From assembly GCF_004010195.1 (NCBI RefSeq), contig NC_057718.1, forward strand, positions 77,078,079-77,142,078: 64,000 nucleotides of DNA, given 5' to 3'. Shown here piece by piece: positions 3,610 to 63,112 of the stretch; position 1 is the stretch's first letter; the number at the start of each line of letters is the position of its first letter. The notes under the pieces were generated by a model, which was not told the origin of the DNA, did not search any database, and worked only from the letters and a program-made list of their open reading frames with translations. This DNA comes from Chiloscyllium plagiosum. Lineage: Eukaryota. Made by a program: the position numbers and the translations under genes.

Positions 3610-3833
3610 GGAGAAAGTGAGGACTGCAGATGCTGGAGATTAGAGCTGAAAATGTGTTGCTGGAAAAGCGCAGCAGGTCAGGCAGCATCCAAGGAGCAGG
3701 AGAATCGACGTTTCGGGCATGAGCCCTTCTTCAGGAAAGTTTCTGAAGAAGGGCTCATGCCCGAAACGTCGATTCTCCTGCTCCTTGGATGCTGCCTGAC
3801 CTGCTGTGCTTTTCCAACCAACATATTTTTAGC
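3610..3833. mobile_element. Short palindromic PLE-derived insertion (family A) with two opposed hammerhead-like motifs
   Basis: Inverted arms ~3643-3738 and ~3740-3833. Motif ctgaaga-a-gggc-tcat-gccc-gaaacgtc at 3743-3770 (+) and 3707-3734 (-). 14-bp TSD tatggatactgaaa at 3596-3609 and 3834-3847. Confidence 0.85.
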
Positions 3834-4255
3834 TATGGATACTGAAACTGTGGTAGCACCAAATATTTGACATGCCGTTGTCAAATTCCAGGACTAGAAT
3901 TGGGTGAATCGCTTCACTGACTGTGGTGGTATCCCCTGACTGACTGCAGTCTCCCTCAGCCCATGCAGGACTATTGCCCTTTGACTGTCACACATTGCTG
4001 TTTGGCTGAAGCACAGGCAGCATGTTTGCTGAATTAAACTGCTGGCAAATGCCCCAGGAATGACATTAACATCATATTGGGCCATAAAGTGTCAGGTCCA
4101 TCCGTTGATTGTTCAAAGCCTGCAAGTCATAGATGTTTCTGAACTCCACAGTAAAGTGGTTGGGGACCTACGTTGTGCATGAGTTAGTCTGATGATATGG
4201 AAAAGCTAAATTTGCAGTGAATTTGGGCATGAAGAAACACTGTTGTGAAGAAGTA

Positions 4256-5591
4256 TGGATGTAGGATTGCTCGCTGAGTTGGAAGGTTCATTTCTGCATG
4301 TTTTGTCACCCTACTAGGTAGTATCTTCATTGGACCTCCAGGCGAAGCACTGTACATGATTCCTGCTTTCTATTTATATGTTTAGGTTTCTTTGGTTGGT
4401 GATGACAAAGGTGTCATCCACGTAGCAGACCCAAAGCTTGGGTTGGATGGTTGGCAGAGCTATTTGTTCAAGTCTCTGCATTACTGCCTCTGCTAATCAA
4501 TAAACTCATCAATAAACAAAACAAATTAAAGGAAATCTTCAACACCATCAATAATACCCTTACTGGCATAAAATTCACTAAAGAGGAGGAAAGCAACAAC
4601 AAACTGCCATTCTTAGATGTCACTGCCACAGCCAATGGGCAACTTCAAACCAGCATCTACACAAAAACAGCACATACGGACTAAATATTGAACTACAGAA
4701 GCAATCATCCCAACATCCACAAACGAAGCTGCATCAGATCATTATTTCAACAGCCAACACACACTGCAGCACAGAGGAACTATGCAGAGTAGAGGAAAAT
4801 TACCCATACCATGTATTCAAAAAGAATGGATACCCAATGAACACAGTCCGCCGATTTCTCAGCAACAAACCCAAACAAGCAGACAATACACGTTCAGAAA
4901 CCCTAGCCACTCTCCCCTACATCAAAGACATCTCGGAAATGACTGCCAGACTACTCAGGCTCCTTGACATCATGGTAGCCCACAAACCCACCAACACACT
5001 AAAACAGCAGTTAATGACTTGAAAGACCCTATACAGACAACAAGCAAAATTAATGACATTTACAAAATACTTTGCAAGAACTGTAACAAATACTACATTG
5101 GACAAACAGGCAGAAAACTAGCCACCAGAATACATGAACACCAACTAGCCACAAAATGACATGATCCTCTCTCACTAGTATTCTTATATACAGATAAGGA
5201 AGGACACCACTTCGGCTGGGATAACACATCCATCTTCAGACAAGCAAAACAGAGACACGTACGAGAATTCCTAGAAGCATGGCATTCCAATCAGAAGTCT
5301 CAACAAACACATCGAGTTAGACCCCATCTACCACCCCTTGAGAAAAAGAACCGGAAACGACATCACCATAAGAAATGACATCACCACAGGAAATGGTATC
5401 ACCACAGGAAATGACATCACCAACCCAAAGAAACCCAAACATACAAATATAAAGCAGGAATCATGCACACCTGGAGGCCCACTGAAGATGTTACCTAGTA
5501 GGGTGATGAAATGTTTGGAAATGAACCTTCCAGCTCTGCGAGCAATCCTACATCCAGAACCTCAACCTGAGCGACAAATCTCAAAACTTGC
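4256..5591 (+). mobile_element. Penelope-like retroelement (family D): 5'-truncated, RT C-terminal part plus GIY-YIG endonuclease, inverted 5' segment
   Basis: Plus strand: INNTLTGIKFTKEEESNNKLPFLDV, TLPYIKDISE, IYKILCKNCNKYYIGQTGRKLATRIHEH (GIY-YIG). The inverted 5' part (4256-4455) carries the terminal repeat and LWVCYVDDTFVI on the minus strand. TSD tgaagaagta at 4246-4255 and 5592-5601. Confidence 0.9.
5353..5424 (+). repeat. 18-bp tandem repeat (~4 copies of ggaaatgacatcaccaca) in the PLE 3' region
   Basis: Directly visible; related units at 39725-39780 (-) and 40195-40227 (+). Confidence 0.8.
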
Positions 5592-6729: not shown

Positions 6730-6963
6730 AACAAACACAGAGAATGCCGGAGAAACTCAGCAGATTTGGCAGCATCTGTGGAGATAAAACCGAATTAACA
6801 TTTCGAGTGTGGTATGACTCTGCTTCTGATCCGAAGAAGAATCTTACTGGACATGAAATGTTAATTCTGTTTCGCTTTGCACAGATGTTATCAAACCTAA
6901 TGAGTTTCTCCAGCATTCTCTGTGTTTCTTTCAGATTTTCAGCATTTGCATTATTTTGCCTTT
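6730..6963. mobile_element. Degenerate palindromic PLE-derived insertion (family C)
   Basis: Inverted arms (ggagaaactcagcagatttggcagcatctgtg ... cacagatgttatcaaacctaatgagtttctcc), decayed motif ccgaagaagaatcttactggacatgaaatgttaa, imperfect TSD tataagg(t)ag.gttga. Confidence 0.65.
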
Positions 6964-7076
6964 TATAAGGAGAGTTGACATGTGGTTACTATAAAGTAAT
7001 GTGTGTGGTCAGTAAAGGTATACATCATTGAAGGTATAATATAGTTCATTGAAGTACCTGATAGACGTTCATACAA

Positions 7077-7146
7077 CCTGATGAAGGAGCAGCGCTCTGA
7101 AAGCTAGTGCTTCCAGATAACCTGGTGTTGTGTAATTTTTAACTTC
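7077..7146 (+). mobile_element. Short PLE-type terminal fragment (family B) with hammerhead-like motif
   Basis: ctgatga-a-ggagc-agc-gctct-gaaagcta-gtg. Same family at 8556-8620, 10082-10205, 19395-19815 and 28180-28694. Confidence 0.7.
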
Positions 7147-7429
7147 AATAAAGTAGGGCTCCTGTAATTCATATCAGATTTCTTGGTAAGATTTTACTTT
7201 ATGATTGATTATTTAATATTACACTTTGAAATTGCAGACTACCAAGTTGGAATAATCACATCTTCCTGATAAGACACAGCATTGCATTGAAGAAAAACAG
7301 GATCATTGTACTCCATATAACAGGTATGAACTGCATTCATGACAGAAATAAATAGCATGCAATTCAATGGTGCTTCAAGTGACTTTTTGACTTTGATGGG
7401 AAATGGTTGGAGAGTAGGACATCAAACAC

Positions 7430-7644
7430 TGGGGCGCTAGAAAAGCACAGCCAGTCAGGCAGGACGGGAGGAGCAGGAGAGTCAACATTTCGAGCATAAG
7501 CTCTTTATCAGGAATGGCCTGATGAAGAGCTTATGCTTGAACTGTCGATTCTCCAGCTCCTGGGGTGCTGCCTGACTAGCTGTGCTTTTCCAGTGCCATA
7601 ATTTTTTATTCTGATCTCGAGCATCTACAGTCTTCACTTTCTCT
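7430..7644. mobile_element. Degenerate palindromic family A insertion
   Basis: Homologous to 3610-3833; inverted arms around tcaggaatggcctgatgaagagcttatgcttga. Confidence 0.75.
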
Positions 7645-8619
7645 TGGAACGTTGGAAGTCATTGGAACAAAAGGTATTTACTTAGATTGGCAATAGGTGA
7701 CAAGTAATGCTCCCAAGGATATGTTCAACGTTTATTAATAATTTGGTTAAAAGAAAATAGAGTTTTCTATCTTAGTCTGATAATGACACTAAATTTGAAG
7801 GGAATGTAAATTGTAGTGACATGGTCAAGAAGTAACTAAATAGCAAAAAACAGATTAATCGAGGAAGCAGAGCTATGGAAAATAAAGCTTAATGTAGGCA
7901 ACGTAAGAGGCAATCTATTTTTGACCAAATAATTGTGAATTAGATTGTTTCCAACCAAAAGAAAATAATGAGCAGGAAGATTTGAGAGTTCAAGTACATT
8001 AACCATTTAAATTTTGTCAACAAGAACAACAAGCAATCAAAAAGGCAAACAGAATTTTTTTTATCTGAAGGCTAGAATATTTCAGGATGGAAGTTGTGCT
8101 GTAGTTATATAGAGCCTTATTTGGATTTTATGTGGAGTACTACTTTCAATTCATGATGCTCGGGAAGGATATATTTTCCTTGAAGGAGGTGAAACAGAGA
8201 ACCATCCCTTCACATAAGGCTATCATAGCTATGTGATAGCTGTGAATTATGATGCAATCTGGAATGTTTGGAATTAGGCACTCAATTGAATTTTAAGAAA
8301 ATAGATTGTGAGGTTTTGCATTTTGCTGTTTATGGTGTCTGGGCAAACAGTTTAGACTTGCACAGAAACAGACCACTTAGCCTCACAGTCCATGGTGGTA
8401 TTTATGCTAAATACAAGCTTCGTCCACAACTGAATTTATTGAATCTTATAAACATATGCTTCTACTCAAACCTCTCATTTGTGTCTATGTATATTTGTGG
8501 ATGTAAATTCTGATCTCACCCCTGTCCTTCTCTGTCTACCTTTTATATCTCCAAGAAGATCACTAGTGCTTCCAAATAAACCTGTTGGACTATAACCTGG
8601 TGTTATGTGACTTTTAATT

Positions 8620-10050
8620 TCATATCCTCGAAGATGTCAATCAGGTTGGCAATCTAAGTGTATTGTTACAACCTTTTTTGAACAAAGGTGTTACATGTGC
8701 TATTCTCCAGTGCTCAGGCACCACCCCAAACCTAGAAAAGATCGAAAGATTATGGCCAGTGTCTCTGCAATTTTCACACTCACTTCCTTCAATATCGTTG
8801 GATGCATCTCATCTGGTTCCAGTGTCATCAACTTTAAGTATCAATAGTCTATCCAGTACATCCACCTTATCTGTTTTAAACCCTTCTAGTGACAGAGTTT
8901 TGGTCACCTTGATCTGGGCAGCACTACTTTCTTAGTAAAGAAAGATACAAGGTATTAATTTAACACCTTAGCCATGCCCATTGCCTCTGTGTGTATATCC
9001 TCTTTGAGGTCCCTAATTAGCCCTACTCTTTATGTCCCTATAGAAAACTTCTCATATTCTTCTTTGTTAGCTTACAGTCTTTTCTCATAGTCTCTCTTTG
9101 CACTCATATTTGCTTTTAAACCTCCCCTCTGAACCTTCTTAATTATATTTTCTATCTGCCACCAGCCATTAACACATTTTATTATCTTAATCCCCTTCTC
9201 CTTTCTCATCCAGGCAGCTCTGGGCTCGTTTGACCTAACTTTCCTTTTTGTGGAAAAATGCCCCAACTTAACTTTTTGGTTGGCATCAACCATTTGAGCT
9301 GAAGGGCCTCTCTCCGTGCTGTAGGACGCTATGTGCAGGGCCAGGTGAATTGGCCATTCTAAATTGCCCGTAGTGTTAGGTAAGGGGTAGGTGTAGGGGT
9401 ATGGGTGGGTTTCGCTTCGGCGGGTCGGTGTGGACTTGTTGGGCCGAAGGGCCTGTTTCCACACTAATTAATCTAATCTAATCTAGACTCTATGTACCTG
9501 TAACACCTCTTCTTTGAGGCTATCATTGTTCAGCAAAGCTTTTCCTGCAAGTCTTTGGTTCCAGTTTATCTAGTCCAGCTCTGTTCTTGCTGTATTGAAT
9601 TCAGCTCTTCATCATTTTATTATTCTTACTCAGGATTGTGCTTTGTCTTTTTCCATTGTCGTCATAAACTTTCTGACACAAGTTTCACTGTTCTCTAGAA
9701 GCCCTCCCATCGATACTTGCTTGAATGGAGCCATTTGGTTTCTAAGATATAGGTCTATCAGTGCCTCCTTTCTGGTTTGACTGAACAAGTACTGCTATAG
9801 AAAACACTTCTGAACACAATCTAGGAGTCTATCAAGGTTGTATCTACTACCAACATCCTAATCAATATTTGGATAATTGAAGTCTCCATTATAACTACTC
9901 TGTGCTGTTTTCACCTCTCTGTAATGTCCTTGGAGATTTAATATTCCACATCCTTCCCATTAGATGGTGATCTGTAAACTATACCAAGCAATGTGATTTT
10001 ACCCTTTTTGTATCTTATTTCAAGCTAAATTGACTGTTTTCTTGAACCCT
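8620..10050 (-). mobile_element. Degenerate CR1 LINE ORF2 fragment, interrupted by a SINE
   Basis: Minus-strand translation AKRDYEKRL and an endonuclease-region relic resemble the CR1 copies at 22869-24140 and 25400-26900. Confidence 0.6.
9336..9486 (+). mobile_element. 5'-truncated HE1/V-SINE-type SINE
   Basis: ggtgaattggccattctaaattgcccgtagtg ... gggcctgtttccacact plus (taatc)n tail; near-identical to the 3' half of the full copies at 23244 and 47555. Confidence 0.85.
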
Positions 10051-10081
10051 CTGAGATATCCTCCATCTGCAGCAAGACGAT

Positions 10082-10205
10082 CACCTGATGAAGGAGCAGC
10101 GCTCCGAAAGCTGGTGCTTCCAATTAAACCTGTTGGTCTATAACCTGGTGTTCTGTGATTTTTTTACTTTGTACACCACAGTCCAACCGGCATCTTCAAA
10201 TCAGC
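10082..10205 (+). mobile_element. Family B PLE terminal fragment with hammerhead-like motif
   Basis: cac-ctgatga-a-ggagc-agc-gctcc-gaaagct-g-gtg followed by aaacctgttgg.ctataacctggtgtt. Confidence 0.75.
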
Positions 10206-10929
10206 ATTACAATGTTGTCCTTAACCAATCAATTTGTACACTGGCTTCTCCAAATCAGCATTACAATGTTCTCCTTAACCAATCAAGTTGGAAAGATAAA
10301 ACACAGATCTGCAGATGCTGGACTCTGAAACAAAAACATAAATTGCTCGAGAAACTCAGGAAGTCTGGTCGTATCTGAGGGGAGAAAGCAGAGTTAACTT
10401 TTCGAGTCCAGTGACTCTTAATCAGAATGGCCAAAAAAATGTGTTACTTGTCACTCAACTCAGTAATGTAGCAGGGGAATTTCAATGCTGGCATGACACG
10501 AGTACGCAGGCTGATGTCAAAAAATTGGCAGATCATAACAAACTGCATATCTTTAGCTATTCACAACTAGCAAGGTACTCACTGTACTCAGCTTGGTAAG
10601 CTTGCAAAACTCATAACAGTATTCACCAATGTAGTTCCACAATTACTGCATAGACTTGGGTGTGCAAGGAATCATGCTGTCAGCCAATTTACGATGGTCA
10701 GTCGGGCTTAATGTACTTGCATGTACTGAAAGCTACATGCGTCAATATACAGAGAATGTTCTTTGCTGGGCCTATCTATTTACTCTTTTGAACAAGGGTG
10801 CTGCATTTTCAGGCACCATTCCTAAGTTTAGAGAAGATGGAAAGACTATTGCTAGCACTTGTGCAATTTCCACTCTCACTTCCTTTAATATCCTTGGACA
10901 GAAAGAATATTGTGATGTTGATTCATAAT

Positions 10930-11759: not shown

Positions 11760-11777
11760 ACCTACTGACCCAAAACG

Positions 11778-13863: not shown

Positions 13864-14086
13864 AAAACAAAGAACTGTAGATCTGAAAATCTGAAACAGA
13901 AACAGAAGTATTGAAAAACTCAGCAGATCTGGCAGCATCTGTGGAGAGAAAACAGAGCTAACATTTCAAGTCCAGTGACCTTTCAATTCTGAAGAAGAGT
14001 CACTGGACTTGAAACATTAACCCTGTTTTCTCTCCTCAGATGCTGCCAGATCTGCTGAGTTTCTCCAATTTCTGTTTTTGTGTCCA
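13864..14086. mobile_element. Palindromic PLE-derived insertion (family C), ~1 kb downstream of the CCR6 stop
   Basis: Arms aaactcagcagatctggcagcatctgtggagagaaaacag and ctgttttctctcctcagatgctgccagatctgctgagttt; motif ctgaaga-a-gagtc-actg-gactt-gaaacatt-aac; imperfect TSD ttttcacac(a)taaaat at 13849-13863 and 14087-14102. Confidence 0.8.
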
Positions 14087-16914: not shown

Positions 16915-17640
16915 AGTTGAAACAAAACTGAATGTGCTGGAGAAACTCAGTATCTGTAGAAAAAAACAAAGTTATTGCTTTTAGTCCAGTAACCCTTTGT
17001 CAGAACTGAAAATAAGTGAGAAATGATGTTATTTATACTGATGACAGGGCTGGGGGTGGGGGGTAGAGTGAATAGGAGTACACCGAGATTGTGCCCAGCC
17101 AGAGAGAGAAAAGGGATAGACATATAATGCCTAGATTGATGATGTTAAGCTGAGATAAAAATGTTGTCAAGAAGAATAAATGGTTGAAAATGAGTTGGCT
17201 GTATTGGGAGCAACCCTACAAATTGCACCTAGTGGTGTGGGGGTAGATAATGAAGATGTAGGAGGGTTCTCGCATTCTGAAGTTATTAAACTCAATATTG
17301 ATTCCTGAAAGTTGTAAAGTGGAAGATAAGGTATTTTTCATACAGCTTATATTGATATTCAAAACAGAATTGTTGAGGAAAAGGGTCATCCAAGTGAAGG
17401 TCAGTGCGGGGTGAAAGTTGGAAGGAAACTTGACAATTTTTCCAATTCCAGATGAGAGAGGGAAGCAGCACTGATTATGTCATTGATGTACCAGAGAAAC
17501 AGTTAAGGAGAGGGACCTGAGTAGGATTGGAACAAGGCATGTTCCACATAAACCAAAAGAAACAAGCATAACTGGGGCACCAAGAGGGTACCCACATCCA
17601 CAACTACTTGAAAGTGAGAATGAAGGTGAACCCTTCCTTG
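16915..17640 (-). mobile_element. Degenerate Penelope-like element (family C terminal repeat plus RT relic)
   Basis: Minus strand across frameshifts: GT..(G)PSYAC..GYVEHALFQSYSG..LFLWYINDII (PLE RT, YIDD-like). The family C terminal sequence sits at the element 3' end (16915-17010). Confidence 0.7.
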
Positions 17641-17719: not shown

Positions 17720-17925
17720 AAAACTGCAGAAATCTGAAAGAAAAAGAATTCTGAGAAGCTGAGGATGTCAGTCAGCATTGTTAACAGAAAAATAGAGTTA
17801 ATGTTTGGAGTCCAGAGACCTTTTTGTGTTCTGACAAAAGGTCACTGGACGTGAAATGTTAACTTCGTTTCTCGCTCAACAGATGCTGCCAGACCTCCTG
17901 TGTTTCGTTAGCATTCAGTTTTTCG
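17720..17925. mobile_element. Degenerate palindromic family C insertion
   Basis: gagttaatgtttggagtccagagaccttt..ttctgacaaaaggtcactggacgtgaaatgttaact; same architecture as 13864-14086. Confidence 0.6.
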
Positions 17926-19394: not shown

Positions 19395-19815
19395 CCGAGA
19401 ATACATTTTGCTTTGGAAATAAAACCAATTTGACTCCAGGTTAGAACACAGACTGTTAACAGGACCTCACACCTAAAATGCATTGTCTAACCTGAGATGT
19501 CACCACTTGTATACACTGATAAAACTTGTAGTTATCTCGGGGCAGTGACTTGAAAGAAATTCTGGGATTTTCATTTTAATCATTCAAAATCTGCATCTCC
19601 TTTTTAACTGATTAGAGATTTAACGCAAGGGAGTCAGCCATTTTAAGTTTGTTCAATACATTCGTGTCAGTTGTATGACCTTTTGATCTTTTACTTAAAA
19701 ATTCTGTCTTTTGCATCCTCTTTCATTACACCTGATGAAAGAACAACACTCCGAAAGCTAGTGTTTTTAAATAAACCTGTTGGACTTTCACTTGGTGAGA
19801 TGTGATTTTTGACGT
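19395..19815 (+). mobile_element. Longer family B PLE-type 3' terminal segment
   Basis: Ends in cacctgatgaaagaacaacactccgaaagctagtg...aaacctgttggact; the upstream part matches 28180-28240. Confidence 0.6.
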
Positions 19816-20289
19816 TACCTTTTGCAGGAATAATCTGAGAACAAGTAAAACTTAAGTATTGGCAGCATGCTTGAAAAACACTTGTAATCAAGATCAAACA
19901 CGAGCAAGAAAAACAATTACCACCTTCATACCCAAGTCATGGCAAGAGGTGGTGGTGTTGTTTGTACTATCACTGAGTTAGAACTCCAGAATCTTAAATA
20001 ATTTCAAGTGACAAGAATTTGAATATCCCATGGCAGATTGTGAAATTTCAATGCAATAAAATCTGAAATTAAAAGCTGGCTTAAAGGAAACCATGAAATC
20101 ATTGTTGATTACCCTAAAAAAATCTAGATCTCTAATGCCCTTCAGGGAAGGAAGTATGTCATCCTTCTCCTGGAGAAGAGTCTATGGGACTCTGAATATT
20201 AACTCCTTCTTTCTCCACAGAGCCTGCGAGACCTGCTAAGTTTCTCCAGCATTCTCTGTGCTTGTTACAAATTTCCAGCCTCTGCAGTA

Positions 20290-21985
20290 CTTTGCCTTGA
20301 TTAATTGTCATTATCTTAATTGTGACTCCATATCTATAGCAATGTGAATGACTCTTAATGACCCTGTTAAATCAATTTTATCAAACCTTAAAGGAATGAA
20401 ACCCAAGCATGATACAGACATTGAAGCAACAATGGCAAATTCAACCATCTTAATCCCCAGAATATCTTCTTTTGTAATATCTGAGGGTTTCATGCCAAAA
20501 CTGGAAGAGCCGACCCACAGATAAGTCTAAAAATAACCTGACATAATCATACTCTTTGAATCATAGCTTAGAAAGTCCCAGAAACCACCATCATTTCTGG
20601 ATATATCATACACCACCAGCAAGGATAGACTGACCTGCAATGACATCATAGACATGTACGTTGAGATGAATTTGCTCTAGGAGTCCTCAACATTGCTGTC
20701 TGACTCTATGTAGTCTCATAGTATCAGGTCAAACAGGGACTGTGCTGATTATCATCCTCAGTTAATGAATCACATCCATGTTGAACATCATTAGGAGAAT
20801 GGCAAGCAATACAGAATACAGGTGGGGGATCTTCAATGTCCATTGCAAACAGTCACTCAGTAGCGTCACTACTCACTGGGCTGCCAAGTCTTGAAGAACA
20901 TAGCTGCCAGACTAGGTTTGAGGCAGACGGTGAGAGAACCAACAAAAAGGAGAAACTTATTAGATTTGACATCGCCCTTACCAATCTACCTGTCACAGAT
21001 GCAGAAAGAAAATAAAGAATTGCTGGAAATCTGAAACAAACACAGAAATTGCTCAAGAAACTCAACAGGTCTGGTAGGGTCTGTGGAGAGAAAGCAGAGT
21101 TAACATCAAATCAATAACTCTGGAAACAACATGCAAAGCGATTGTGGTTCAGAGCTAATGTCGTATTCAGTCATGAATGGTGGCAGACAATTAAATAAGT
21201 AACAGGAAGAGGAGGCTCTATAAATATTCTCCATCCTCAATGATGGTGAAGCGAAGCACATTAGTGCAAATGACAAGGCTGAAACCTTTCAAATCATCTT
21301 CAGCCGGAAGTTCCGAGTAGATGATTCATATTGGCCTCTTCCAGAGATCCCCAGCATCAGAGATGCAACTCTTCAAACAAGATGATTCATTCCAAGTGAT
21401 ATCAAGAAACAGCTGAAGGCACTGGACTTTGCAAAAGCTAATTCAGCTCTGATAACATTCTGGCAATAGTACTGCAGACTTGTGCTCAAGAACTAGGCAC
21501 ACTCGTAGCCAATTTGTGCCGGTACAACTACAACATTGGCATCTAACTGACAATATGGAAAACTGCCCAAGTAAATCTTATACACAAAAAGCAGGACAAA
21601 TCTAACCCATATAATGCTGTACTATTAGTCTGCACTTGATTATCAGTAAAGCATATGAAGGTATAATCAACTGTGTCTTAAGCAGCACTTTCTTTGTAAT
21701 TACCTGCTCACTGACACTAAGTTTGGGTTCCACCAGGGCTGTTCAACTCCTGACCTCATTAGAGCCTTGGTTCAAACATGAAAACATTTTGAGGTAAGGT
21801 TACAGTGATTGCCCTTGATAAAGGACACAGCATCAAGAAGCCTTAAAAAAACTGAATTCAATGAGAATGTGAGGGAAAATTCTCCACTTGTTCGAGTCAT
21901 ACCTAGCACAAAAAAAGATGGTTGCGGTTCTTAGAAGTCAATCGTCTCAGTCCCAGGACATTGCCACACAAGTTGCTCAGGGTAG
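20290..21985 (+). mobile_element. Degenerate CR1-group LINE ORF2 (endonuclease plus RT part), with a family C fragment at ~21003-21105
   Basis: Relics of GDFN (gggggatcttcaatgtccat), LDL..TN, WK.AQV..IHKKQDKSNP.N...ISL, FGFHQG.ST.DLI and V.QGS; many stops and frameshifts. Confidence 0.7.
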
Positions 21986-24189: not shown

Positions 24190-27100
24190 AAAATTAACAG
24201 ACAGTGAAATTCACAACTGATCTTGGAGGAACCTGTTTGGGAGAAGTCACAGCACAGAGACAGATAAGTGAATAGCTTTAAGTGTGGCCTTGGGGAGTCT
24301 GCAGTAGTGAAGAGACTAAGTTCTTTCTTGATCATATATATTTTATTGAGATATGTCTCTCGATTAAACTTAAAAATATAAGCCACAAGTTAGCCTGGAG
24401 CAGTGTTTTATACAGGAATAAGATGGGGCTATTTTCTGGTTTTGCAGATTGGAAGAAACAAAAATGGCCCTTAGTAGAGTGATATGCTCTTCTTGTTGAA
24501 TATGGGAGTTTCGGGAGAGTTTATGTGTTACTGCAATAAATACCGTTGGTTGTGAATCCTATCTGATCGAATGGAACGGTTGGAACTACAGTTGGAGGCA
24601 ATGAGGAATTTATAAGAGCAAGGGGATGTGATGGATGGCAGTTATAGGAAGAGAGAAAAGTTGCAGATACAGTCATATAGATGGGTTACCTCTAGGAAGG
24701 GTAAGAGAGGTAGGCAGGTAGTGCAAGAGTCTTCTGTGGCTACCCCCATTTCAAACAAGTATGCTGTTTTGGAAAATGTCGGGGTTGATGGATTCTCAGG
24801 GGAATGTAGCAGAAACAGCCAAGTTTCTATCAAGGCAGGCTCTAATGCAATAAGGGGAATGTCGGGTTCCAAGCAATCGATTATGATAGGGGACTCCCTA
24901 GTCCGAGGCACAGTTAGACGTTTCTGTGACCAGCATGAAAAATCAGAATGGTGTGATGCTTCCCTGGTGACAGGATCAAGGATGTCTCAGAGAGGGTGCA
25001 GAATATTCTCAAGGGGAGAGGGCCCAGCAGGAGGTCATTGCACACATTGGAAGGGAAAAGGTTGAGATTCTGAAGAGAGATTACAGAGAGTTAGCCAGGA
25101 ATTTAAAAAGGAGGTCCTTGAGGGTAGTAATATCTGGATTACTCCCAGTGCTACGAGCTAGTGAGGGTAGGAATAGGAGGATGGAGGAGATGAATGCATG
25201 GCTGAGGAGCTGGTGTATGGGAGAAGAATTCACATTTTTGGATCATTTGGAATCTCTTCTGGGGTAGAAGTGACCTGTACAAGAAGGACGGATTACACCT
25301 AAATTGGAAGGGGACTAATGTGCTGGCGAGGAGATTTGCAAAAGCTGCTCTGGAGGATTTAAAATGGTAAGGACAGTCAGGGACAAAGCAGAAAACAAGG
25401 TAGGACTGATAAATTCAACAGCATTTTTTTCAACACAAGGGGCCTAACAGGGAAGGCAGATGAACTCAGGGTATGGTTCGGAACATGGGACTGGGATATC
25501 ATTGCAATTACAGAAGCATGACTCAGGGATGGACAGGACAGGCAGTTTAATGTTCCAGGATACAAATGCTACAGAAAGAACAGAAAGGGAGGCAAGAGAG
25601 GAGGGGGAGTGGCGGTTTTGATAAGGGATAGCATTACAGCTGAACTGAGGGAGGATATTCCTGGAAATACATCCAGGGAAGTTATTTGAGTGGAACTGAG
25701 AAATAAGAAAGGGATTATCACCTTATTGGGATTGTATTACAGACTCCCTTATAGTCAGAAGGAAATTGAGAACCAAATTTATAAGGAGATTACAGCTATC
25801 TATAAGAATAATAGACTGGTTATGGTAGGGGGTTTTAACTTTCCAAACATAGACTGTGACTGTTGTAGCGTTAAGGGTTTAGATGGAGAGGAATTTGTTA
25901 AGTATACAAGAAAATTTTCTGATTCAGTATGTGGATGTACCTACTAGAGAAGGTGCAAAACTTGACCTACTCTTGGGAAATAAGGCAGGGCAGGTGACTG
26001 AGGTGTCAGTGGGGCAGCACTTTAGAGCCAGTGACTGTACATCTACTAGTTTTAAAAATAGTGATAGAAAAAGATAGACCAGATCTAAAATTGGAGAAAG
26101 GAGAATTTGACAGTATTAGGCAAGAACTTTCAAAAGTTGATTGGGAGCAGATGTTCGCAAGTAAAGGGAAGGGCTGGAAAATGGGAAGCCTTCAGAAATG
26201 AAATAACGAGAGTTCAGAGACAGTATATTCCAGTTAGGGTGAAGAGAAAGGCTGGTATGTGTAGAGAATGCTGGATCACTACAGAAGTTGAGGGTTTGGT
26301 TAAGAAAACGAAGGAAGCTCATGCCCGAAACGTCAATTCTCCTGCTCCTTGGATGCTGCCTGACCTGCTGCGCTTTTCCACCAACACATTTTCAGCTCTG
26401 ATCTCCAGCATCTGCAGTCCTCATTTTCTCCAAGAAGGAAGCATATGTCAGGCATAGACAGGAGAGATCGAGTGAATCCTTAGAAGAGTAGAAGGGCAGT
26501 AGGAGTGTACTTAAGAGGGAAATCAGGAGGGCAAAAAGGGGACATGAGATAGTTTTGGCAAATAGAGTTAAGGAGAGTCCAAAGGGTTCTTACAAATGCA
26601 TTAAGTACAAAACGATAACCAGGGCGAGAGTAGGGACCCTCAAAGATCAGCAAGCTCCTGTGTGGAGCTGCAGAAAATAGGGGAGATACAAAATGAGTAT
26701 CTTGCATCAGTGTTTACTGTGGAAAAGGACATGGAAGATATAGAATTTAGGGAAATAGATGGAGACATCTTGAAAAATGTCCATATTACAGAGGAAGGAG
26801 TGCCGGATGTCTTGAGGTGCATAAAAGTGGATAAATCCCCAGGACCTGATCAGATGTACTGTAGAATTCTATGGGAAGCTAGGGAAGTGATTGCTGGGCC
26901 TTTTGCTGAGATATTTGTAAATTGATAGTCACAGGTGAGGTGCCAGAAGACTGGGGATTGGCTAACGTGGTGCCACTATTTAAGAACGGTGGTAAGGACA
27001 AGCTAGGGAACTATAGACCTGTGAGTCTGATGTCAGTGGTGGGCAAGTAGTTGGAGGGAATCCTGAGGGAGAGGATTTGCATGTATTTGGAAAGGCAAGG

Positions 27101-28179: not shown

Positions 28180-28694
28180 CGTTTCAGTTGCATGACACTG
28201 ACACTTTTTGCTATAAATTCTGTGCCTTATGATCCTGCTCCACCTGATGAAGGAGAAGCGTTCCAAAAGCTAGTACTTCCAAACAAACCTATTGGACTAT
28301 AACCTGTTTTTTTTTAGATTAGACTACCTACAGTGTGGAAACAGGCCCTTCGGCTCAACAAGTCCACACCGACCTGCCGAAGTGTAATCCACCCAGACCC
28401 ATTCTCCTACATTTACCCCTTCACCTAACACTACGGGCAATTTAGCGTGGTCAATTCACCTGACCTGCACATTTTTGGATTGTGGGTGGAAACTGGAGCA
28501 CCCGGAGGGTGCCCATACAGACACGGGGAGAATGTGCAAACTCCACACAGAGAGTTGCCTGAGGCGGGAATTGAACCCGGGTCTCTGGCGCTGCGAGGCA
28601 GCAGTGCTAACCACTGTGCCACCGTGCCGCCCATAATGGTGTTGTGTGATTTTTAACTTGTCTACCCCAGTCCAACACTGATACCTCCACATCA
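28180..28694 (+). mobile_element. Family B PLE terminal segment split by a SINE
   Basis: cacctgatgaaggagaagcgttccaaaagctag...ctataacctg | SINE | tggtgttgtgtgatttttaact... Confidence 0.75.
28306..28632 (-). mobile_element. Full-length HE1/V-SINE-type SINE
   Basis: Very similar to 23244-23558; A and B boxes intact. Confidence 0.92.
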
Positions 28695-31465: not shown

Positions 31466-31839
31466 GTGGTTGAGGGAAGGGAGAGATGGTGAGCTGTAGG
31501 GACAGGGGGCTTGGAAGGGAGAAAGGGCTGACAGTAGGAAGAAGGACTGGTGGGTGAGGAAGGGGAAGAGATTGTAGGCTGAGAGGGTGAGGAGGGGTTT
31601 AGGCGGACAGGAGTTCTCAGTTTATTGGGGTGGGAGACTGTTGGCATGAATTACTCTGCAATCTTCTATTCAATATCAGTTGGTACAACTTTGACTTTCC
31701 TTCATTCAGATGTCATTACCTAAGTGAAGGAAATATCAGGGAAGTTCATGAATTACATTTTCGAAAAAAAAGTCTGCCACTGGTGTGTCAGGATCCCTTT
31801 CTGTTTTGCTGACAGTTCCCTTGTCTTGCAACCACTAGG

Positions 31840-38559: not shown

Positions 38560-38670
38560 TTCTGAAGAAGGGTCACTGAACCTTAAACATTAACTCTCAC
38601 AGATGCTACCAGAACTGCTGATCCAGCAGTTTCTGTTTTTATTTCTGATTACCAGCATCTGAAGTCTTTT
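38560..38670 (+). mobile_element. Family C fragment with hammerhead-like motif
   Basis: ttctgaagaagggtcactgaaccttaaacattaactc...cacagatgctaccag. Confidence 0.65.
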
Positions 38671-39545: not shown

Positions 39546-40369
39546 CGAGATTTGAGGAGATTTGTAGCTCAGGTTGAGGTTTTGGATGGAGGTTTGCTCA
39601 CTGAGCTGAAAGGTTCATTTCCGGACGTTTCACTACCTTACTAAGTAATATCTTCAGTGGACCTCGTGCGAAGCAATGCTGACAATTCCTGCTTTCTATT
39701 TATACGTTTGGGTTTCTTTGAGTTGGTGATGTCATTTCCTGTGGTGATGTTATTTCCGGTGGTGAAATCACTTTCTGTTCCTTTTCTCAGGGGTGTAGAT
39801 GGGGTCTAACTCTATGTGCTTGTTGATAGAGTTCCGGTTGGAATGCTATGCTTCTAGGAATTCTCATGCGTGTCTTTGTTGGCTTGTCCTAGGATGAATG
39901 TACAAAATACCATGCAAGGACTGCAACAAACACTACATTGGACAAACTGGCAGAAAACTAGCCACCAGGATACATGAACACTAACTAGCAACAAAACGAC
40001 ATGGCCTTCTCTCATTAGTATCCTCACATATAGATGAGGAAGGACACCACTTCGACTGGGACAATACATTCATCCTAGGACAAGCTAAACAAAGACACGC
40101 ATGAGAATTCCTAGAAGTATGGCATTCCAAGCGGAACTCTATCAACAAACACATCGAGTTAGACCCCATCTACCACCCCCTGAGAAAAGGAACAGGAAGT
40201 GACTTCAACACAGGAAATAACATCACCAACCCAAAGAAACCCAAACATATAAATAGAAAGCAGGAATTTTCAGCATTGCATTGCATGAGGTCCACTGATG
40301 ATGGTACCTAGTAAGGTATTGAAACATCTGGAAAGGAACCTTTCAGCTCAGTGAGCAAACCTCCATCCA
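39546..40369. mobile_element. Family D Penelope 3' portion as a head-to-head inverted duplication
   Basis: 39546-~39900 is the 3' end on the minus strand; ~39900-40369 is the GIY-YIG (YKIPCKDCNKHYIGQTGRKLATRIHEH) plus 3' end on the plus strand. TSD acacat(t/c)acaaa at 39534-39545 and 40370-40381. Confidence 0.9.
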
Positions 40370-40461
40370 ACACATCACAAAATCACAGTTGCTTTGGCAC
40401 CAAAGGATGTCATTCAGCCTGTCATGTCTGTGTCAGTTTTCTGAAGAAGAAATGAATTTAA

Positions 40462-41896: not shown

Positions 41897-42027
41897 GGAG
41901 AAAGCGAGGACTGCAGATACCGGAGATCAGAGTCGAAGTGTTTGGCACTGGAAAAGCACAGGTGGTCAGGCAGCATCCGAGGAGCAGGAAAATCGACGTT
42001 TCGGGCAAAAGCCCTTCATCAGGAATC
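41897..42027 (-). mobile_element. Family A PLE terminal fragment with intact hammerhead core
   Basis: Minus strand 41995-42022: ctgatga-a-gggc-tttt-gccc-gaaacgtc. Confidence 0.85.
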
Positions 42028-49346: not shown

Positions 49347-49443
49347 GACTGTTCAGTTACTTGGGAACCAATCACAGAGTTGTTAGCAAGCAGAACATCA
49401 TTGCTAACAACTCTGTGATTGGTTCCCAAGTAACTGAACAGTC
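49347..49443. repeat. Perfect 43-bp inverted repeat with 11-nt spacer
   Basis: 49347-49389 is the exact reverse complement of 49401-49443 (checked base by base). Confidence 0.97.
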
Positions 49444-50225: not shown

Positions 50226-50344
50226 TCACAGGCTGATCACATGCTTGGGTAGATTTTATGATTGATGTTGTGAAACCAAAGTTCATCTGATGCAAGCACC
50301 TAGGAATTTGAATAAAGAACAGTTTTTCAAAGATCAAATCATAT

Positions 50345-50706
50345 TGTGATTCTGTTCACCGAGCTGGGAATTTGTGTTGCAGACGTTTCATCCCCTGTCT
50401 AGATGACATCTTCAGTGCTTGGGAGCCTCCTGTGAAGCGCTTCTGTGATCTTTCCTCTGGCATTTGTAGTGGTTTGATTCTGCCTCTTCCAGTTGTCAGT
50501 TCCGGCTGTTACTGACAACCGGAAGTGGCAGATTCAAACCACTACAAATGACGGAGGAAAGATCACAGAAGCGCTTCACAGGAGGCTCCCAAGCACTGAG
50601 GATGTCACCTAGACAGGGGACGAAATGTCTGCAACACAAATTCCCAGCTTGGCGATCAGAACTACAACAACGAGCACCCGAGCTACAAATCTTCTCACAA
50701 ACTTTG
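50345..50706. mobile_element. Family E palindromic PLE terminal insertion with opposed hammerhead-like motifs
   Basis: Inverted arms of ~145 bp. Motifs at 50382-50415 (-; gca-ctgaaga..gaaacgtc-tgc) and 50596-50629 (+). Imperfect TSD gatcaaat.at. Confidence 0.85.
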
Positions 50707-53110: not shown

Positions 53111-53842
53111 AATAAATAGAATGAATGATTGAAGAATGTGCAGTTATGATCCCAGCTAATGGTAACACTAGAAAAGTGAAAATATAGAGTGAAACTTGGC
53201 TTGTTAGATTCTAACTTGATTTTCCTTTAGCCATGAAGGTCTGTTACTGAATACATTGACAAAAGGCTGCCAGTGTACTTTTAACACAACAATAGAATCT
53301 TTATCAACAAGAACACATGATCTAAATTATATTAGACAAAACAAAAGTTGAAAAGACATCTAGCAAATAGATAGTTTAGGCTAACAATTTATATAGTTGA
53401 GTTTTGCAATTGTATCACTTTTAATCATTGTTCATTGAGGTATAGCAAGTATTCTTAGCAGAAGCATAGGAACAGAAACAGGTTGGTCATTCAGCCCGTT
53501 GAGTGTGTTAAATCATTCTGTTAGACATCAGAAAACACTATTCCTTTTATCCCAACAATATACTTAAAAGTACCCAAACTTCAGTGAAAAGTTATCACTA
53601 TCCTGACATTAAAGCTCCTTTCTCACACTCAGGCTGGTACAGCTGCAATCATTTTCCTTTTGATGAATTTCTGTGCCTCACTAAATTTCATTTTCCTTCA
53701 GTCATATCTCTACCTGAGACACGTAAAACAAACCATAAACTAAACTCACTATAACCTTAACTTAATGGCAAATGCAGGAGTTCCATAAATGCAGTGTTCA
53801 GCTACCTTGCCTTTGTACTCTGGCACTAATAGTCTCATACCT

Positions 53843-54291
53843 CAGTATGTAAGTTAACTCGCTGTGCTTGAAGGTTTGTTTTCAGACGTTTTGTCACCAT
53901 ACTAGGTAACATCATCAGTGAGGGTCTCTGGTGAAGCACTGGTGGTATGTCCCGCCTCTCTATTTATAGGTCTTGTCTCTTAAGGTGGGTGATGTAATTT
54001 CCAGTTATTTTTTCCCAAGAGAAGGTAGACAGTGTCTAACTCGATGTGTTTATTGATGGAATTCTGGTTAGAATGCCATGCCTCTAAGAATTCTAATGAG
54101 TGTCCTGGTTTTGCCTGCCCTAGGATGTGTGTGTTGTTCCAGTCAAAGTGGTTTCCTTCTTTGTCTATATGTATAGAAACTAGTCATAGTGGGTCATGTC
54201 TTTTAGTGGCCAGTTGGTGTTCATGTATCCTTGTTGCAAATTTCCAGCTAGTTTGTCCAATGTAGTTTTTTTTATAGTTCTCAAAAATTGC
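53843..54291 (-). mobile_element. Penelope (family D-related) 3' fragment with GIY-YIG tail
   Basis: Minus strand YIGQTSWKFATRIHEHQLATKRHDP; 13-bp TSD tagtctcatacct at 53830-53842 and 54292-54304. Confidence 0.85.
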
Positions 54292-54932
54292 TAGTCTCAT
54301 ACCTATTGACTTTCAGGAATGCGCTGTTTCTTCTTGTCACTGATTTTTTTAATGAACAGTTCAATGGAGATACAGTTGCAAAACTCAAATATAGAAATTG
54401 TTAGTCTAAACTATCTATTTGCCAGCTATATAATGTGCTAATCCAACATTGATATGAAACTCCATTGTCTTCTATTTCAGGATATGCTTTTTTGTATGCC
54501 TTTGAATCTCCTGCTTCAGTGGCCTTCATTGGCAATGTTTAGGAAAGGGAGCCTTTCGCCTAAACTCAGTCTACCATGGAGTTGATTCCAGTTCCTTACT
54601 GTGTGGTTGACTCATTGCATTTTGAATTCGACCAGTTAGCCACATGGTTTTTATAACAACTAGTGATAGGGAGTTTTGGAATGTTGACAACTGCATTCAC
54701 ATTCTGAGAACAGTTTTTTAAGTGATACACTTGAATTCTCTGCTGCAGTCTAGATAAGTACAGTGAATAATGGAAAATATGAATGTTGAATCTTAGTGTT
54801 GTCTGATTGCCCAAATTATGGTATATCTTCTTTGCACCATTTTCAACAGAACTGCTACTAGCATTTTCTTCTATGTACATTGTCTGTGAAAACAGCATGG
54901 GTGTGTGGTCCAATCATCTATAAATTTTCTTC

Positions 54933-55170
54933 GCTGGAAATGTGTTGCTGGAAAAGCGCAGCAGGTCAGGCAGCATCCAGGGAACAGGAGAATCGACGTT
55001 TCGGGCATAAGCACTTCATCAGCCCTTCATCGGGCATCAGCCCTTCCTGATGAAGGGCTTATGCCCGAAACGTCGATTCTCCTGTTCCCTGGATGCTGCC
55101 TGACCTGCTGCGCTTTTCCAGCAACACATTTCCAGCTCTGATCTCCAGCATCTGCAGACCTCACTTTCTC
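54933..55170. mobile_element. Young palindromic family A insertion
   Basis: Near-perfect inverted arms; intact core ctgatga-a-gggc-ttat-gccc-gaaacgtc at 55047-55074; perfect 15-bp TSD ctataaattttcttc at 54918-54932 and 55171-55185. Confidence 0.92.
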
Positions 55171-55989
55171 CTATAAATTTTCTTCCACAATTTTCTGCTA
55201 TTGCTGCTTTCCAAGTAATGCTAAGCCACAAAGTGACGGTAATGGACATGAGGAGTCCTGATGTATAAAGACACTCTTGTTGCTGCTTTTTTCCCCCATT
55301 TCCTTTAGTTAATGATGAAGGTTTCACATTCCACCATGGCCTTCAATGGCCATTTAGACCAGCCCCTGGGCATTTATGGCTCTTCAAAACTCCTCACTGG
55401 CGCTACTGGTGCTGAAGGGAGATTAGATTAGATTTGATGGGCAAACAAAAACTCTATCTTACTGAAAATGTGATCTAAAGATGATTTGCAACTAATATCT
55501 ATGGTGTGGATTCATACTTCAGAAACAGTTCAAGCTAGTGTTTTTATTTTTTTAATCTGTTTTTTATAAGAAATAATGCAGAGCTAAGGTAACATAATCT
55601 TGGCTATGCTGTTGGGTGGATGCAATTAATAGGGTCCAGTAAAAGGCAGGAAAGATTGCCATGGCAGTTGATTTGGGTTGTTACTGTAAGCCTCCAATAT
55701 TTAGATGAAATATGAAAATAACCTACTTTTAGGGGAATGGTTTCTGGTTGTGTTGGAACAAAATTAAAGATTATATTTGTTCTGTATCCAATTAGATTTC
55801 AATCTTAAATAGAACAAAATAGCTGTAATAAATTATGCTTTTTGGGACTTTGGCATAACAGTAGATTGTCTGAAAACTTTTACAATTTTAGAGTAATAAA
55901 TGCTTTCCCATAATTCAGTACTCCGTGAATTGTATATACAGTATGTAGCTTTGCATCCAGTTTCTGCAACCAGCTCTGGAGATGTGCTG

Positions 55990-56600: not shown

Positions 56601-56684
56601 ACTTTGGCCATTCAGACTTGAGAAAATAGGATCTGGTGGGGGAAATGCTTTTCAAACATCTGGATATAGTCTCCTGTATATTGT

Positions 56685-59375: not shown

Positions 59376-59586
59376 AAAACTGCAGTTTAGTGCTGCGAGG
59401 GACCTCTTTGAGGTCTGGCATCTGTAGCCATGAAGGAAACAGTTTGAGCCTGTTTGGGAGGTAATTGCTTATATGGCTAAAAGGTGAGATTGGATGTCCT
59501 CAGACTGTGCTTTGACTGCAGCATTCAAAAGCTTTCTGCTGGTGTTGCAATAGATGGTGAGATATTGGTCAACATGTACTGCATCA

Positions 59587-60339: not shown

Positions 60340-61120
60340 GCACTATAACCCAGGTTCACAGATGATACAACAAAGTAAGCAATGTGGAAGAGGCTGAAGA
60401 GGGATATCAATTGATAGTGAGTGGGCAAAACTATAGCAGATGGAATATAAGGGCATGTTCTATATGTATTTAACCTAATTTAAAAAGGTAAAAGAGCACA
60501 ACATGTTTTGAATGATGAGAGAGTGTCACATTTAGGAATGCCAGGTTATCCTAGTAGAGTGCCACAATATGATTGAATTCTACATTCAGTTTGAAGAAGA
60601 GCAGACTGGGTCTGCGACTGTTCTTAAAAAATGTAAGGGAAATTATGAAGACAGAGGATAGGTCAAAGAGCTGCTCTGGCAAATATTTAAGGAGATAGTT
60701 CAGAATATACAGAATAGATATGTTCCAATGAGTAAGGAAAATTCCATGCAAAGGACCTATCATCTGTGGTTAAGGAGAAATGTTAAAGATTATATCAGGC
60801 TTAAAGAAAAACATATAATTGTGCAAAAGCAGATGGTAGGTGAGAGGATTGGACAGAATATAAAACAAAGGAAAAGAATGACCTAAAACTTAATAAACAG
60901 CGAAAAAGTAGAGTACGATAGAAAACTAACAGAAATATAAAAACAAAGAATTTCTTTAAGTATTGAAAGGAGTGAACAAGGTGACTGTTGGTCCAGATTG
61001 GAGATTATCAGTAGTCAGCCGGAATATAGATTTCAGGTTATAATGGATCAGTCAAATTCTTATTGAAGCGCAGAGCTTACTCAAGAAGTAGAATGGCCTA
61101 ACCTTAGTCCTAAGAAAGAA
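60340..61120 (+). mobile_element. Rearranged, degenerate CR1 ORF2 fragments
   Basis: Relics of FADDT (ttcacagatgatacaa), SEWA..QMEY and EYDRKL. Confidence 0.5.
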
Positions 61121-63009
61121 GGTCTCATTTTTTAATCATATATGTTGTTGATATGCATTTGTCACCATTCTTGTTACTCTGATCTCTATTGGAAAATTCT
61201 GCCAGTTATATTATAGCAATGGATAGCCTCTCCCATTGCTCTTTGCCCAAGTGTAACATTAGCACTGAATAAGTCAGGCAATCTTGTCCAGTCACTTTGA
61301 ACACCTGCTGCAAAACAGATTACACTTGCCTTTAAGAGAAGGAAGCTGATATTTAGCAATGCAGCATAGCTTTAGGTGATGCCAACTTTGCAAAAACTTA
61401 GACCTTCTGCAAAGATATGCAACCTAATTCATTTTGCACTATTATGATACAAATGGGCAGGTAACACAAAGCTCCCATGCTGACTGCACTGCAACAAACA
61501 CGCACATGCTAACTATATATTATAACCCTCATCTTGTTTTCAAGTCTTATTCAATTTCTCCCCTCAAATGCCTCAAGGAATTGTAAAAAGGATGATGGAC
61601 CAGCTTTTGTCTATACTTCTTCCCTTCTGCTTTGTGTCAGGAACGGATTGTTCATCAGTTGCAAAGCACAGCATACTTAATCCCACATACCAACCTTCAT
61701 TAAGTTAATTCTGTTTGTAATATCTCTTTTTTTTCCTGTCTCAGCAACAGCCTCGGTATGTTTTGGAATTTCTGAGGTATTGGATTCACTTTGATAATCA
61801 GAAGCTAACTTTTAAATTAAGATGTGTTATACATGTAACCTGGAAGATTTCCATTTAATGTTTGAAATGGAGTCAGAGACATGTCGAGGCATGTTTTGCA
61901 CATTTCATTTAGGGAAGCACAAAGTGTAGCAATGGGGTGAAGAAGTAGTTTAAAAATTATTCCTTAAGTTTCTATGTATCTCTAGAATAGCTATCCAGGT
62001 TAGGTACTTTGAATATTCTATTGCTTGTCTTAAAATGTAACTTAATAGAGCTTTGTACTTTGAATTGCTGCACTGGCTTGTTTATTGTTCAGAAACTTTA
62101 CTGGGCTATAAGAGTGTCCAGGTTACATTTCTATGGTTACCAATTACAAACTTGTCAATGGTTAAGAAAGTCTTTTGAAAGCACAATGGTGTTTCTTGTA
62201 TTATATTTTCCACTTATGCTTATTAGAAAGATCAGGTTTGTTTTCATAACATCTTAAAATAGTTTAGTACAGAAGGAGGCCATTTGACACATTGCACCTA
62301 TACTGGGTCCTTGATAGAACTATCTAATTAGTCCTACTCCCCAAATCCTTTCCGTATAATTCTGATAATATTTCCAGATCCATGAGCTACCCTTTTGAGA
62401 GCTATTGTTGAATCTGCTTCCAGAAAACATTCAGCTACAAAATTTCAAAATTTCCAGATCCTAATAATTGACTACATAAGAAGATGCATTTCCCTTTCTG
62501 GTTCTTTTGTTAATTACTTTAAATCTATCTTTCTGGTTATCTACAACTGAGTAGTGAAGATTCTGTCTCAGGAAGTTTACAAAAGTTGACTTTCTCCATC
62601 CTGTTCAAACTGGAATCAATACAGGTACATGTAATATTGAACTTTGTAATCAGCAGTAACACTATTCCTCACAACGTCTGTGAAAGGAATCTCTTTCCCC
62701 ACAATCAGTTTGCATCTGTCACTAGGTCAAGGAGATTTAAAAGCAGTGAAGTCATTAAGCAGGTAAACCATCAGTTATATTTATGTATTCTCATGGGGAG
62801 CAACCGGAAAGTGTCACTGAAATTCTTTATCTCTACGTGAAATTTAACAGTACACTTATACATCATAGGTTTGAATATTTTGGTAGCAATATTTTGGTAG
62901 TTCTAATTAGCGATTGGAATATGGTAATTCCTAATACTATTGTTTCTTGTATAGAGAGAAATGAAGAAAACTAGGTTCATGAAATGAAAATGCAAGAGTG
63001 AATCTGAAG

Positions 63010-63112
63010 GTGTTCAGAAGAAGGTTCACTGGACTTGAAACGTTAACCGTGTTTCTCTTTCCACAGGTGTTGCCGTACTTGCTGAGTTTCTCCAGCAATT
63101 TTTGTTTTTTGT
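63010..63112 (+). mobile_element. Family C fragment
   Basis: gtt-cagaaga-a-ggttc-actg-gactt-gaaacgtt-aac...gctgagtttctccagc. Confidence 0.7.

Follow-up and report, generated by a model that had tools for sequence, protein, structure and literature searches.

Minimal hammerhead motifs in the terminal repeats of five families of endonuclease-bearing Penelope-like elements in the shark Chiloscyllium plagiosum

Minimal type I hammerhead ribozymes of metazoan Penelope-like elements (PLEs) were described by Cervera and De la Pena (2014, PMC4209133), who reported them in the fish elements Neptune, Poseidon, and Xena. Other systems close to the one considered here are the Poseidon element of Anolis carolinensis (PAc), for which protein-assisted cleavage was demonstrated (Frangieh et al., 2024, PMC11167929); the endonuclease-bearing (EN+) PLEs, whose insertion architecture is known from Craig et al. 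(2021, PMC8557442) and Arkhipova et al. (2013, PMC3846280); and the retrozymes that lack long terminal repeats (non-LTR retrozymes), reported in one cartilaginous fish (bioRxiv 10.64898/2026.07.22.740005). Dimer cleavage of such hammerheads is covered in a review (PMC6765202). Here, we analyse a 64,000-nt stretch of the C. plagiosum genome (assembly GCF_004010195.1, contig NC_057718.1, positions 77,078,079 to 77,142,078), hereafter the window, in which a first-pass annotation had seen about 20 hammerhead-like motifs. Its statement that PLE terminal repeats carry minimal type I hammerheads was already established. The window motifs show all four emergent features listed in the accessible text of PMC4209133. 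The association of the motifs with PLEs is published, and their existence is not new.

With high confidence, we identify them as minimal hammerhead motifs of type I that reside in the pseudo-long terminal repeats (pLTRs) of five EN+ PLE families, designated A to E. The PLE content of the window consists mostly of dead 100–400 bp stubs of element ends. Minimal hammerheads in PLE pLTRs, together with dead stubs that likely derive from uncut RNA, very probably represent the best overall explanation.

Motif census and anatomy

A structural descriptor (CUGANGA, stem II of at least 3 bp, GAAA-NN-UH) matched the window 14 times, as compared to a mean of 0.145 and a maximum of 2 in 200 dinucleotide shuffles of the same sequence. 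With a helix I of at least 2 bp also demanded, 12 matches were obtained versus 0.035 in the shuffles. This enrichment excludes a chance origin of the motifs. All 18 motifs named in the first-pass annotation were located, with some correction of coordinates: the values given for minus-strand motifs were the low ends of the motifs, the true first core base (C3) being at 3734-, 42022-, 39657-, 53918-, and 50415-, and the motif placed at 40296 begins at 40295. Twelve of the 14 descriptor matches belong to these 18; one more is a family E copy absent from that list (32749-), and the match at 17759 looks like chance. Six listed motifs miss the descriptor: 10085, where a G occupies the cleavage position, as well as 19732, 28244, 38562, 63015, and 53918-.

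Family profiles, each derived from 30 copies in the genome, gave 37 copies in the window and no matches in a reversed control sequence; the earlier census was too low in number. The 5' part of the motif is kept in 34 copies (A, 10; B, 4; C, 11; D, 5; E, 4), 20 of which are held in 10 head-to-head pairs. All core letters (CUGANGA/GAAA/UH, in type I order) are retained in 15 of the 34 copies. Only four, all of family A, pass a full test of intactness, comprising the core, G10.1–C11.1, stem II, the palindrome, and helix I. The other 30 fail it, which agrees with the earlier view that many copies are core-mutated and probably dead. The proposed check with Rfam models did not succeed: no hammerhead was among the 20 matches at E ≤ 10 in the window, which we attribute to the lack of helix III in these motifs. 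The microRNA-like Rfam matches correspond to inverted PLE pairs.

The majority sequences of all five families have 13 core positions in common, namely C3, U4, G5, A6, G8, A9, G10.1, C11.1, G12, A13, A14, A15.1, and U16.1, with an extra base between A9 and G10.1. This extra base and the G10.1–C11.1 pair are also present in recurrent haplotypes of families A, B, and E; CpG decay has led to G-U at 10.1/11.1 in many D copies. Stem II counts 4 bp in A, 5 in B and in C, 7 in D, and 3 plus 2 in E, and differs in sequence between families. Helix I has 2–4 bp which, by inspection of the five families, covary between them: UC/GA in A, CAC/GUG in B, AGUU/AACU in C, CCA/UGG in D, and GCA/UGC in E. With the core conserved and helix I swapped as pairs, the claim that stems vary between families yet keep pairing holds true. 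Positions 15–16 are palindromic and lack a helix III loop (ACGU in A, C, D, and E; AGCU in B).

Element families and competence of the motif

The families had been described as having unrelated flanks. This does not apply to two of the ten family pairs, since the tails are homologous between A and C (score 56; shuffle maximum 28) and between D and E (score 62; shuffle maximum 38). The tails of the other eight pairs are without homology. Judged by their tails, the families fall into three flank lineages, not five unrelated ones. The suggestion of several ribozyme-bearing PLE radiations is upheld by these three lineages and by PLE open reading frames (ORFs) linked to all five families. Somewhere in the genome, each family terminates retroelement ORFs with a GIY-YIG endonuclease; B and E are PLE termini too, in addition to A, C, and D as claimed before. 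The traits of EN+ PLEs found here include a reverse transcriptase (RT) followed by a C-terminal GIY-YIG endonuclease with CCHH, and direct or inverted pLTRs.

Coding relics attached to the motifs within the window had been claimed for A, C, and D. For family A, the relic (31779-33279) carries the thumb, a C-x4-C-x2-C linker, and a GIY-YIG-like endonuclease, and three family D loci also contain coding relics. No convincing coding relic adjoins the listed C copies (38562, 63015, and 13989); a weak 14-aa match to an endonuclease end (E=0.002) precedes the unlisted copy 17003-, and such an end precedes the motif at genomic loci L067 and L086. Family B has no coding relic in the window, and an upstream walk elsewhere in the genome revealed the thumb, C-x4-C-x2-C linker, and endonuclease in the same domain order as in A. 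In D and E, RT and endonuclease are followed by the motif and the Cys linker is missing. By the criteria of PMC8557442, as far as these are accessible, the sequences place A, B, and C (the latter by homology to A) in the Neptune/Nematis type and D and E in the Penelope/Poseidon type. In A, B, D, and E, the CCHH/GIY-YIG endonuclease motifs were recognized by visual inspection; in C, the endonuclease end only was available. Pfam lent modest support: of seven segments scanned, one of D type scored above the RVT_1 cut-off (30.6 vs 29.6 bits) and two others below it; the window's own PLE relics gave no Pfam match (0/4). Tandem pLTR–ORF junctions of family A were present at L344 and L189. Comparison of downstream sequence among sampled copies revealed no such junction, while targeted walks did find them. 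Apparent long open frames in genomic loci turned out to be largely assembly gaps.

The ORF of family D starts within the motif, its ATG being formed by A9, the extra U, and G10.1. The frame from this ATG continues, with decay, into the element protein. Among 20 D loci picked by RT sequence, a direct pLTR lies ~1.1 kb upstream of the ORF in five, and in a sixth the upstream pLTR is represented by its tail only. An open frame through the tail of family E suggests the same start for its ORF. In family A, the first ORF ATG is 160–185 nt downstream of the motif. The D/E motif also overlaps the ORF stop: the frame of the D majority (window 5275-5490) terminates at the TGA within the catalytic CUGA, and that of one E and one D copy at a TAG in loop II. 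The family C tail (e.g., window 14020-14042) has a pyrimidine tract and CAG followed by ATG, resembling a 3' splice site, ~20 nt past the predicted cut; inspection by eye revealed no shared upstream exon for C copies. Repeats of GGAAATGACATCA (D) and CCGGAAG (E) are located upstream of TATAAA (window ~5380-5440 and the D/E upstream majority); we take them to resemble ETS/CRE promoter elements.

On balance, we lean towards cleavage competence of the intact motifs, by analogy with other species. On this view, selection would maintain the motif in active source elements, and cleavage would be weak, proceeding in dimers joined via the 4-bp palindrome and probably assisted by protein. The first-pass annotation had named a lack of excess core conservation over the flanks as an outcome speaking against its reading. 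Core departures were fewer than expected from base-matched tails in A (25 vs 69.7), B (11 vs 28.2), and D (6 vs 12.8), and not in the old family C (49 vs 52.1). Besides this lack of excess in C, several points weigh against reading the motifs as functional ribozymes of EN+ PLEs. The copies compared were found with core-containing profiles, which favours core matches, and the excess is mostly at A bases, with little or none at G bases. The cleavage position in family C is U, and helix I in most subfamilies of A is just 2 bp. Of four endonuclease segments, only that of family A matched Pfam GIY-YIG, below the cut-off (15.8 vs 22.6 bits). Finally, the double-hammerhead fold is 3–18 kcal/mol above the predicted minimum in all five families (-13.3/-21.9 in A, -17.3/-26.5 in B, -10.9/-18.8 in C, -17.1/-20.0 in D, and -5.9/-23.5 in E). 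Such predicted dimer energies would fit reports from other systems, where activity in vitro is low and protein assists. A natural dimer substrate is offered by a young, internally deleted family A tandem (L189:2259-2593 -) with two intact motifs 334 nt apart.

Another reading, consistent with these folding energies, which do not favour the active dimer, is that conservation of the motif has a non-catalytic cause, such as promoter function, start codon context, or protein binding, or that the motif recurs by chance. It does overlap motifs resembling promoter elements, the start codon of D/E, and the end of the ORF, and other functions were left possible in the accessible text of PMC4209133. We consider this unlikely: 13 catalytic letters and a covarying helix I recur in three lineages with unrelated tails, including family A with its distant ORF start, and chance is ruled out by the descriptor enrichment.

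Insertion ends and the copied RNA

Two 3' end sites were identified in each of four families: about +82-96 and +126 in A, +84-87 and +120-123 in B, +75 and +110-115 in D, and +75 and +112 in E. These alternative ends, ~36–44 nt apart, correspond to the PLE tail. None of 174 copies detected by their upstream part (A, 20; B, 51; D, 64; E, 39) ends 3' at the cut site. Since the inserts retain the tail past the predicted cut, the stubs were probably reverse-transcribed from uncut RNA.

The 5' ends of family A were analysed in copies detected by sequence downstream of the cut only (135 copies, of which 116 remained after an 88% identity filter). They accumulate at the motif: 13/116 lie exactly at -4, i.e., four bases before C3, and 40/116 are within -8..+3 (corrected p ~3e-9). 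Comparable accumulation was seen within -12..+3 in B (19/43) and C (27/57). Position -4 is the A of TCATTC (family A) or TCAGTT (family C), ~30 nt below a TATA-like box. Judged against consensus motifs, we take these hexamers to be initiator-like and the box to be TATA-like. By comparison with the upstream sequence of all other copies, 114 A copies are preceded by element untranslated region (UTR; 46 copies), an inverted arm (32), or plain flank (36). A G stands just before -4 in 7/14 non-element junctions (p=0.04), a pattern that would be expected from cap copying. The depth of RNA reads falls about fourfold (about three quarters are lost) at the A pile-up place, with a cluster of loose ends at -4; as these reads stem from transcription running through genomic copies, they bear out the junction, not a start site. 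At an A and a D locus, RNA reads are from both strands and 94–95% of them continue into unlike sequence; almost no depth was found over the ORF start.

In the proposed mechanism, the element RT would prime in the tail downstream of the motif, at either of two sites, and, in the Neptune type, would run off the end of a transcript whose likely start is at the first bases of helix I. The stub would carry the motif because the latter lies between the priming site and the RNA start. Chances are about even that run-off at the RNA start explains the 5' pile-up in A, B, and C. The fuller proposition, that Neptune-type transcripts start on the first bases of helix I and that run-off at the cap, after priming in the 5' tail, leaves hundreds of thousands of ribozyme-headed stubs, is advanced tentatively and falls somewhat short of an even chance. 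If true, the hammerhead load of this genome would be far above the 4,000-9,000 of other vertebrates in the 2014 survey, and the stubs would preserve the start site of PLEs in the genome, with a few percent possibly recording cleavage in vivo.

Some of the data weigh against this account of the stubs. None of 21 D/E 5' ends is within -12..+3, so that no pile-up is seen despite TATAAA ~50 nt upstream. The RNA reads at the A and D loci have no peaks of molecule starts or ends, the single-cell polyA library being probably blind to 5' ends. The set of 174 copies is partly biased, as it includes loci chosen with tail-containing queries. Also, a few 5' starts coincide with the predicted cut base (A, 4/179, p=0.055; B, 2/56, p=0.018; C, 0/60; none in D and E), a weak hint that cut RNA is occasionally copied; with a random sample of 959 kb, this test is underpowered.

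The lack of a pile-up at the predicted D/E start, TATA box notwithstanding, is also one of the arguments for a serious rival, namely that 5' ends accumulate because RT stalls, or the cDNA folds back, at the structured motif and not because a transcription start lies there. In 32/68 short A copies an inverted arm is joined at the pile-up place, and small hairpins are frequent at junctions. The other 36 short copies, however, have plain flank upstream, the peak is one base wide and located on the A of the initiator-like motif, past stem II and not at its foot, and it is preceded by the weak G excess. We regard stalling or fold-back as possible, though rather doubtful. It is improbable that the ribozyme cleaves the RNA in vivo and that the resulting products serve as a regular template for insertion. 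This would accommodate the slight excess of A and B 5' ends at the cut base as well as two A copies (L316 - and L157 -) whose own 3' UTR is fused exactly to the predicted cut base, with one-base microhomology. Yet such starts account for at most 2–4% of copies and for none in C, D, and E, no 3' ends were found at the cut (0/174), read depth is continuous across the site, and the anole Poseidon, according to the accessible text of PMC11167929, inserts in vitro without need for cleavage. Finally, most copies are short and ORF-less, and the L189 tandem is an internally deleted direct dimer, as expected if non-autonomous ribozyme elements (non-LTR retrozymes or stubs like short interspersed elements, SINEs) amplified as their own units. 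Tandem arrays are nevertheless absent, direct pairs less than 1 kb apart numbering 11 among 226 sampled copies and none in the window; near-identical copies differ in their junctions; and each family continues into a PLE ORF. A non-autonomous origin of the window copies is largely refuted and, as a general explanation, very improbable. Run-off from uncut RNA remains our preferred account of the stubs.

Copies in the window, abundance, and comparison with known systems

The copies found in the window are listed in Table 1. Target-site duplications of 8–15 bp were present in four of five head-to-head pairs checked and absent in both solo copies checked. Other PLE ends often host or adjoin PLE stubs (E in A, A in B; L270, L293, window 32685-33000, and L015), which suggests either a site preference or merely high density.

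Table 1. PLE-derived copies in the window (C3, first core base).
Feature	Coordinates	Strand or C3	Remarks
Family A head-to-head pair	3609..3840	C3 3734-, 3743+	both motifs intact; 14-bp target-site duplication
Family D inverted copy	4255..4496	-	C3 position 4330, core mutated; short RT relic 4383-4496
Poseidon-type ORF relic (thumb, endonuclease end) into family D motif 5482 and tail	4582..5590	+	
Family C head-to-head pair	6734..6925	6828-, 6831+	decayed
Family B copy	7076..7146	+	core letters intact, C11.1 to T; tail with internal deletion
Family A head-to-head pair	7431..7602	7511-, 7519+	decayed
Family B tail-only stub	8562..8624	+	starts ~3 nt ahead of predicted cut site
Family B solo stub	10078..10203	+	C3 10085; G at cleavage position
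Family C copy	10333..10427	-	C3 10425; decayed
Family C head-to-head pair	13885..14078	both strands	centre at 13989
Family C copy	16924..17330	-	C3 17003; weak Neptune-type endonuclease-end relic upstream
Family C head-to-head pair	17751..17916	17829-, 17831+	decayed
Family B copy	19729..19816	+	C3 19732; broken stem II
Family C copy	20170..20259	+	decayed
Family C tail-only stub	21040..21107	-	
Family A stub	26310..26416	+	start inside core
Family B copy	28190..28313	+	C3 28244, G12 mutated; ~60 nt of upstream pLTR including TATAAA box
Family A copy	29225..29336	+	C3 position 29256 mutated
Neptune-type ORF relic (thumb, Cys linker, GIY-YIG-like endonuclease), 3' UTR, family A motif 33196	31779..33279	+	split by family E insertion
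Family E head-to-head insertion nested in A element	32685..33000	32749-, 32891+ truncated	13-bp target-site duplication
Family C copy	38560..38639	+	C3 38562; G12 mutated
Family D inverted pair	39557..40376	39657-, 40295+	endonuclease relic 39898-40119
Family A solo stub	41899..42026	-	C3 42022; motif intact; start G-ATTC at -5/-4
Family E head-to-head pair	50342..50705	50415-, 50596+	8-bp target-site duplication
Family D copy	53842..54282	-	C3 53918, G12 mutated; endonuclease relic 54079-54282
Family A head-to-head pair	54932..55172	55022- damaged, 55047+ intact	15-bp target-site duplication
Family C copy	63012..63108	+	C3 63015; U4 mutated

Apart from these copies, the window contains one clear host ORF (11769-12863 +), intact and 364 aa long, for which the best match among solved structures is CCR6 (E 1e-109) and which has PLE stubs within 1.5 kb on both sides. 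A near-perfect 85-bp palindrome (49353-49437), unrelated to families A–E, gave a sub-threshold microRNA-like Rfam match on both strands. A relic of an LTR retroelement, similar to RT/RNase H (Pfam RT_RNaseH), is located at 35912-36607 -. A separate short SINE-like repeat, picked up through shared translations, is represented by ~10 copies (16112, 23404, 28430, 29951, 40464, 41192, 47554, 52770, 59116, and 59669).

The genome bearing the window is 3.56 Gb in size. A sample of 100 segments of 10 kb each, taken at even intervals and comprising 958,813 non-N bases, yielded 226 motif-bearing copies (bootstrap 195-258), 96 with all core letters and 34 fully intact. With 3.4 Gb assumed, this corresponds to ~0.8 million motif-bearing, ~0.34 million core-intact, and ~0.12 million fully intact copies genome-wide. 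The window, with 535 motifs per Mb versus 236 in the sample, is 2.3-fold above average. The highest numbers given in the accessible text of PMC4209133 are ~4,000 (coelacanth) and ~9,000 (Xenopus) versus ~0.12 million intact copies here, a rough comparison as the descriptors differ. Given two clades with ~10^5 intact copies and ~10^6 decayed ones between them, junction statistics can test the role of hammerheads in EN+ PLEs, and could show whether cut RNA ever serves as a template and where the RNA starts. Many host transcripts would carry embedded motifs on either strand.

Literature searches, with subscription journals, Repbase/Dfam, and some supplements outside their coverage, revealed no publication that deals with PLE hammerheads of sharks or with an accumulation of 5' ends at the motif. 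What is notable here is the estimated several hundred thousand copies per genome and the many stubs starting at the first letters of the motif, which is likely the start of the copied RNA.

As far as the accessible parts of the cited sources allow comparison, the window motifs and the minimal hammerheads of PMC4209133 are alike in their type I core without helix III, the extra base between 9 and 10.1, the G10.1–C11.1 pair, palindromic positions 15/16, and many families per genome. Both occur mostly as single truncated copies and as opposite-strand pairs 100–700 bp apart. Helix I is 2–4 bp here versus 4–5 in Schistosoma, and cartilaginous fish are absent from the accessible text of that paper. 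Non-LTR retrozymes also carry type I hammerheads derived from PLE pLTRs but form tandem arrays, whereas the copies described here are dispersed solos and inverted pairs. Families D and E fit the layout of PAc, in which the ORF begins at the foot of stem II and two RT start sites define the tail, and the stubs resemble PAc in their probable insertion from uncut RNA. Protein-assisted cleavage was shown experimentally for PAc; the 5' pile-up at the motif is not described for PAc in the accessible text of PMC11167929. With the EN+ PLEs of PMC8557442 and PMC3846280, our families share 5' truncation, an inverted pLTR, a tail of 30–40 bp, target-site duplications that vary, a pLTR with TATA and initiator, the CCHH endonuclease, and the Neptune/Nematis Cys linker. 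Unlike the EN+ PLEs described there, most insertions here are reduced to the pLTR end, and the 5' ends of the Neptune type have their peak at a single base. The known association of hammerheads with PLEs is extended to five families of two clades in one genome.

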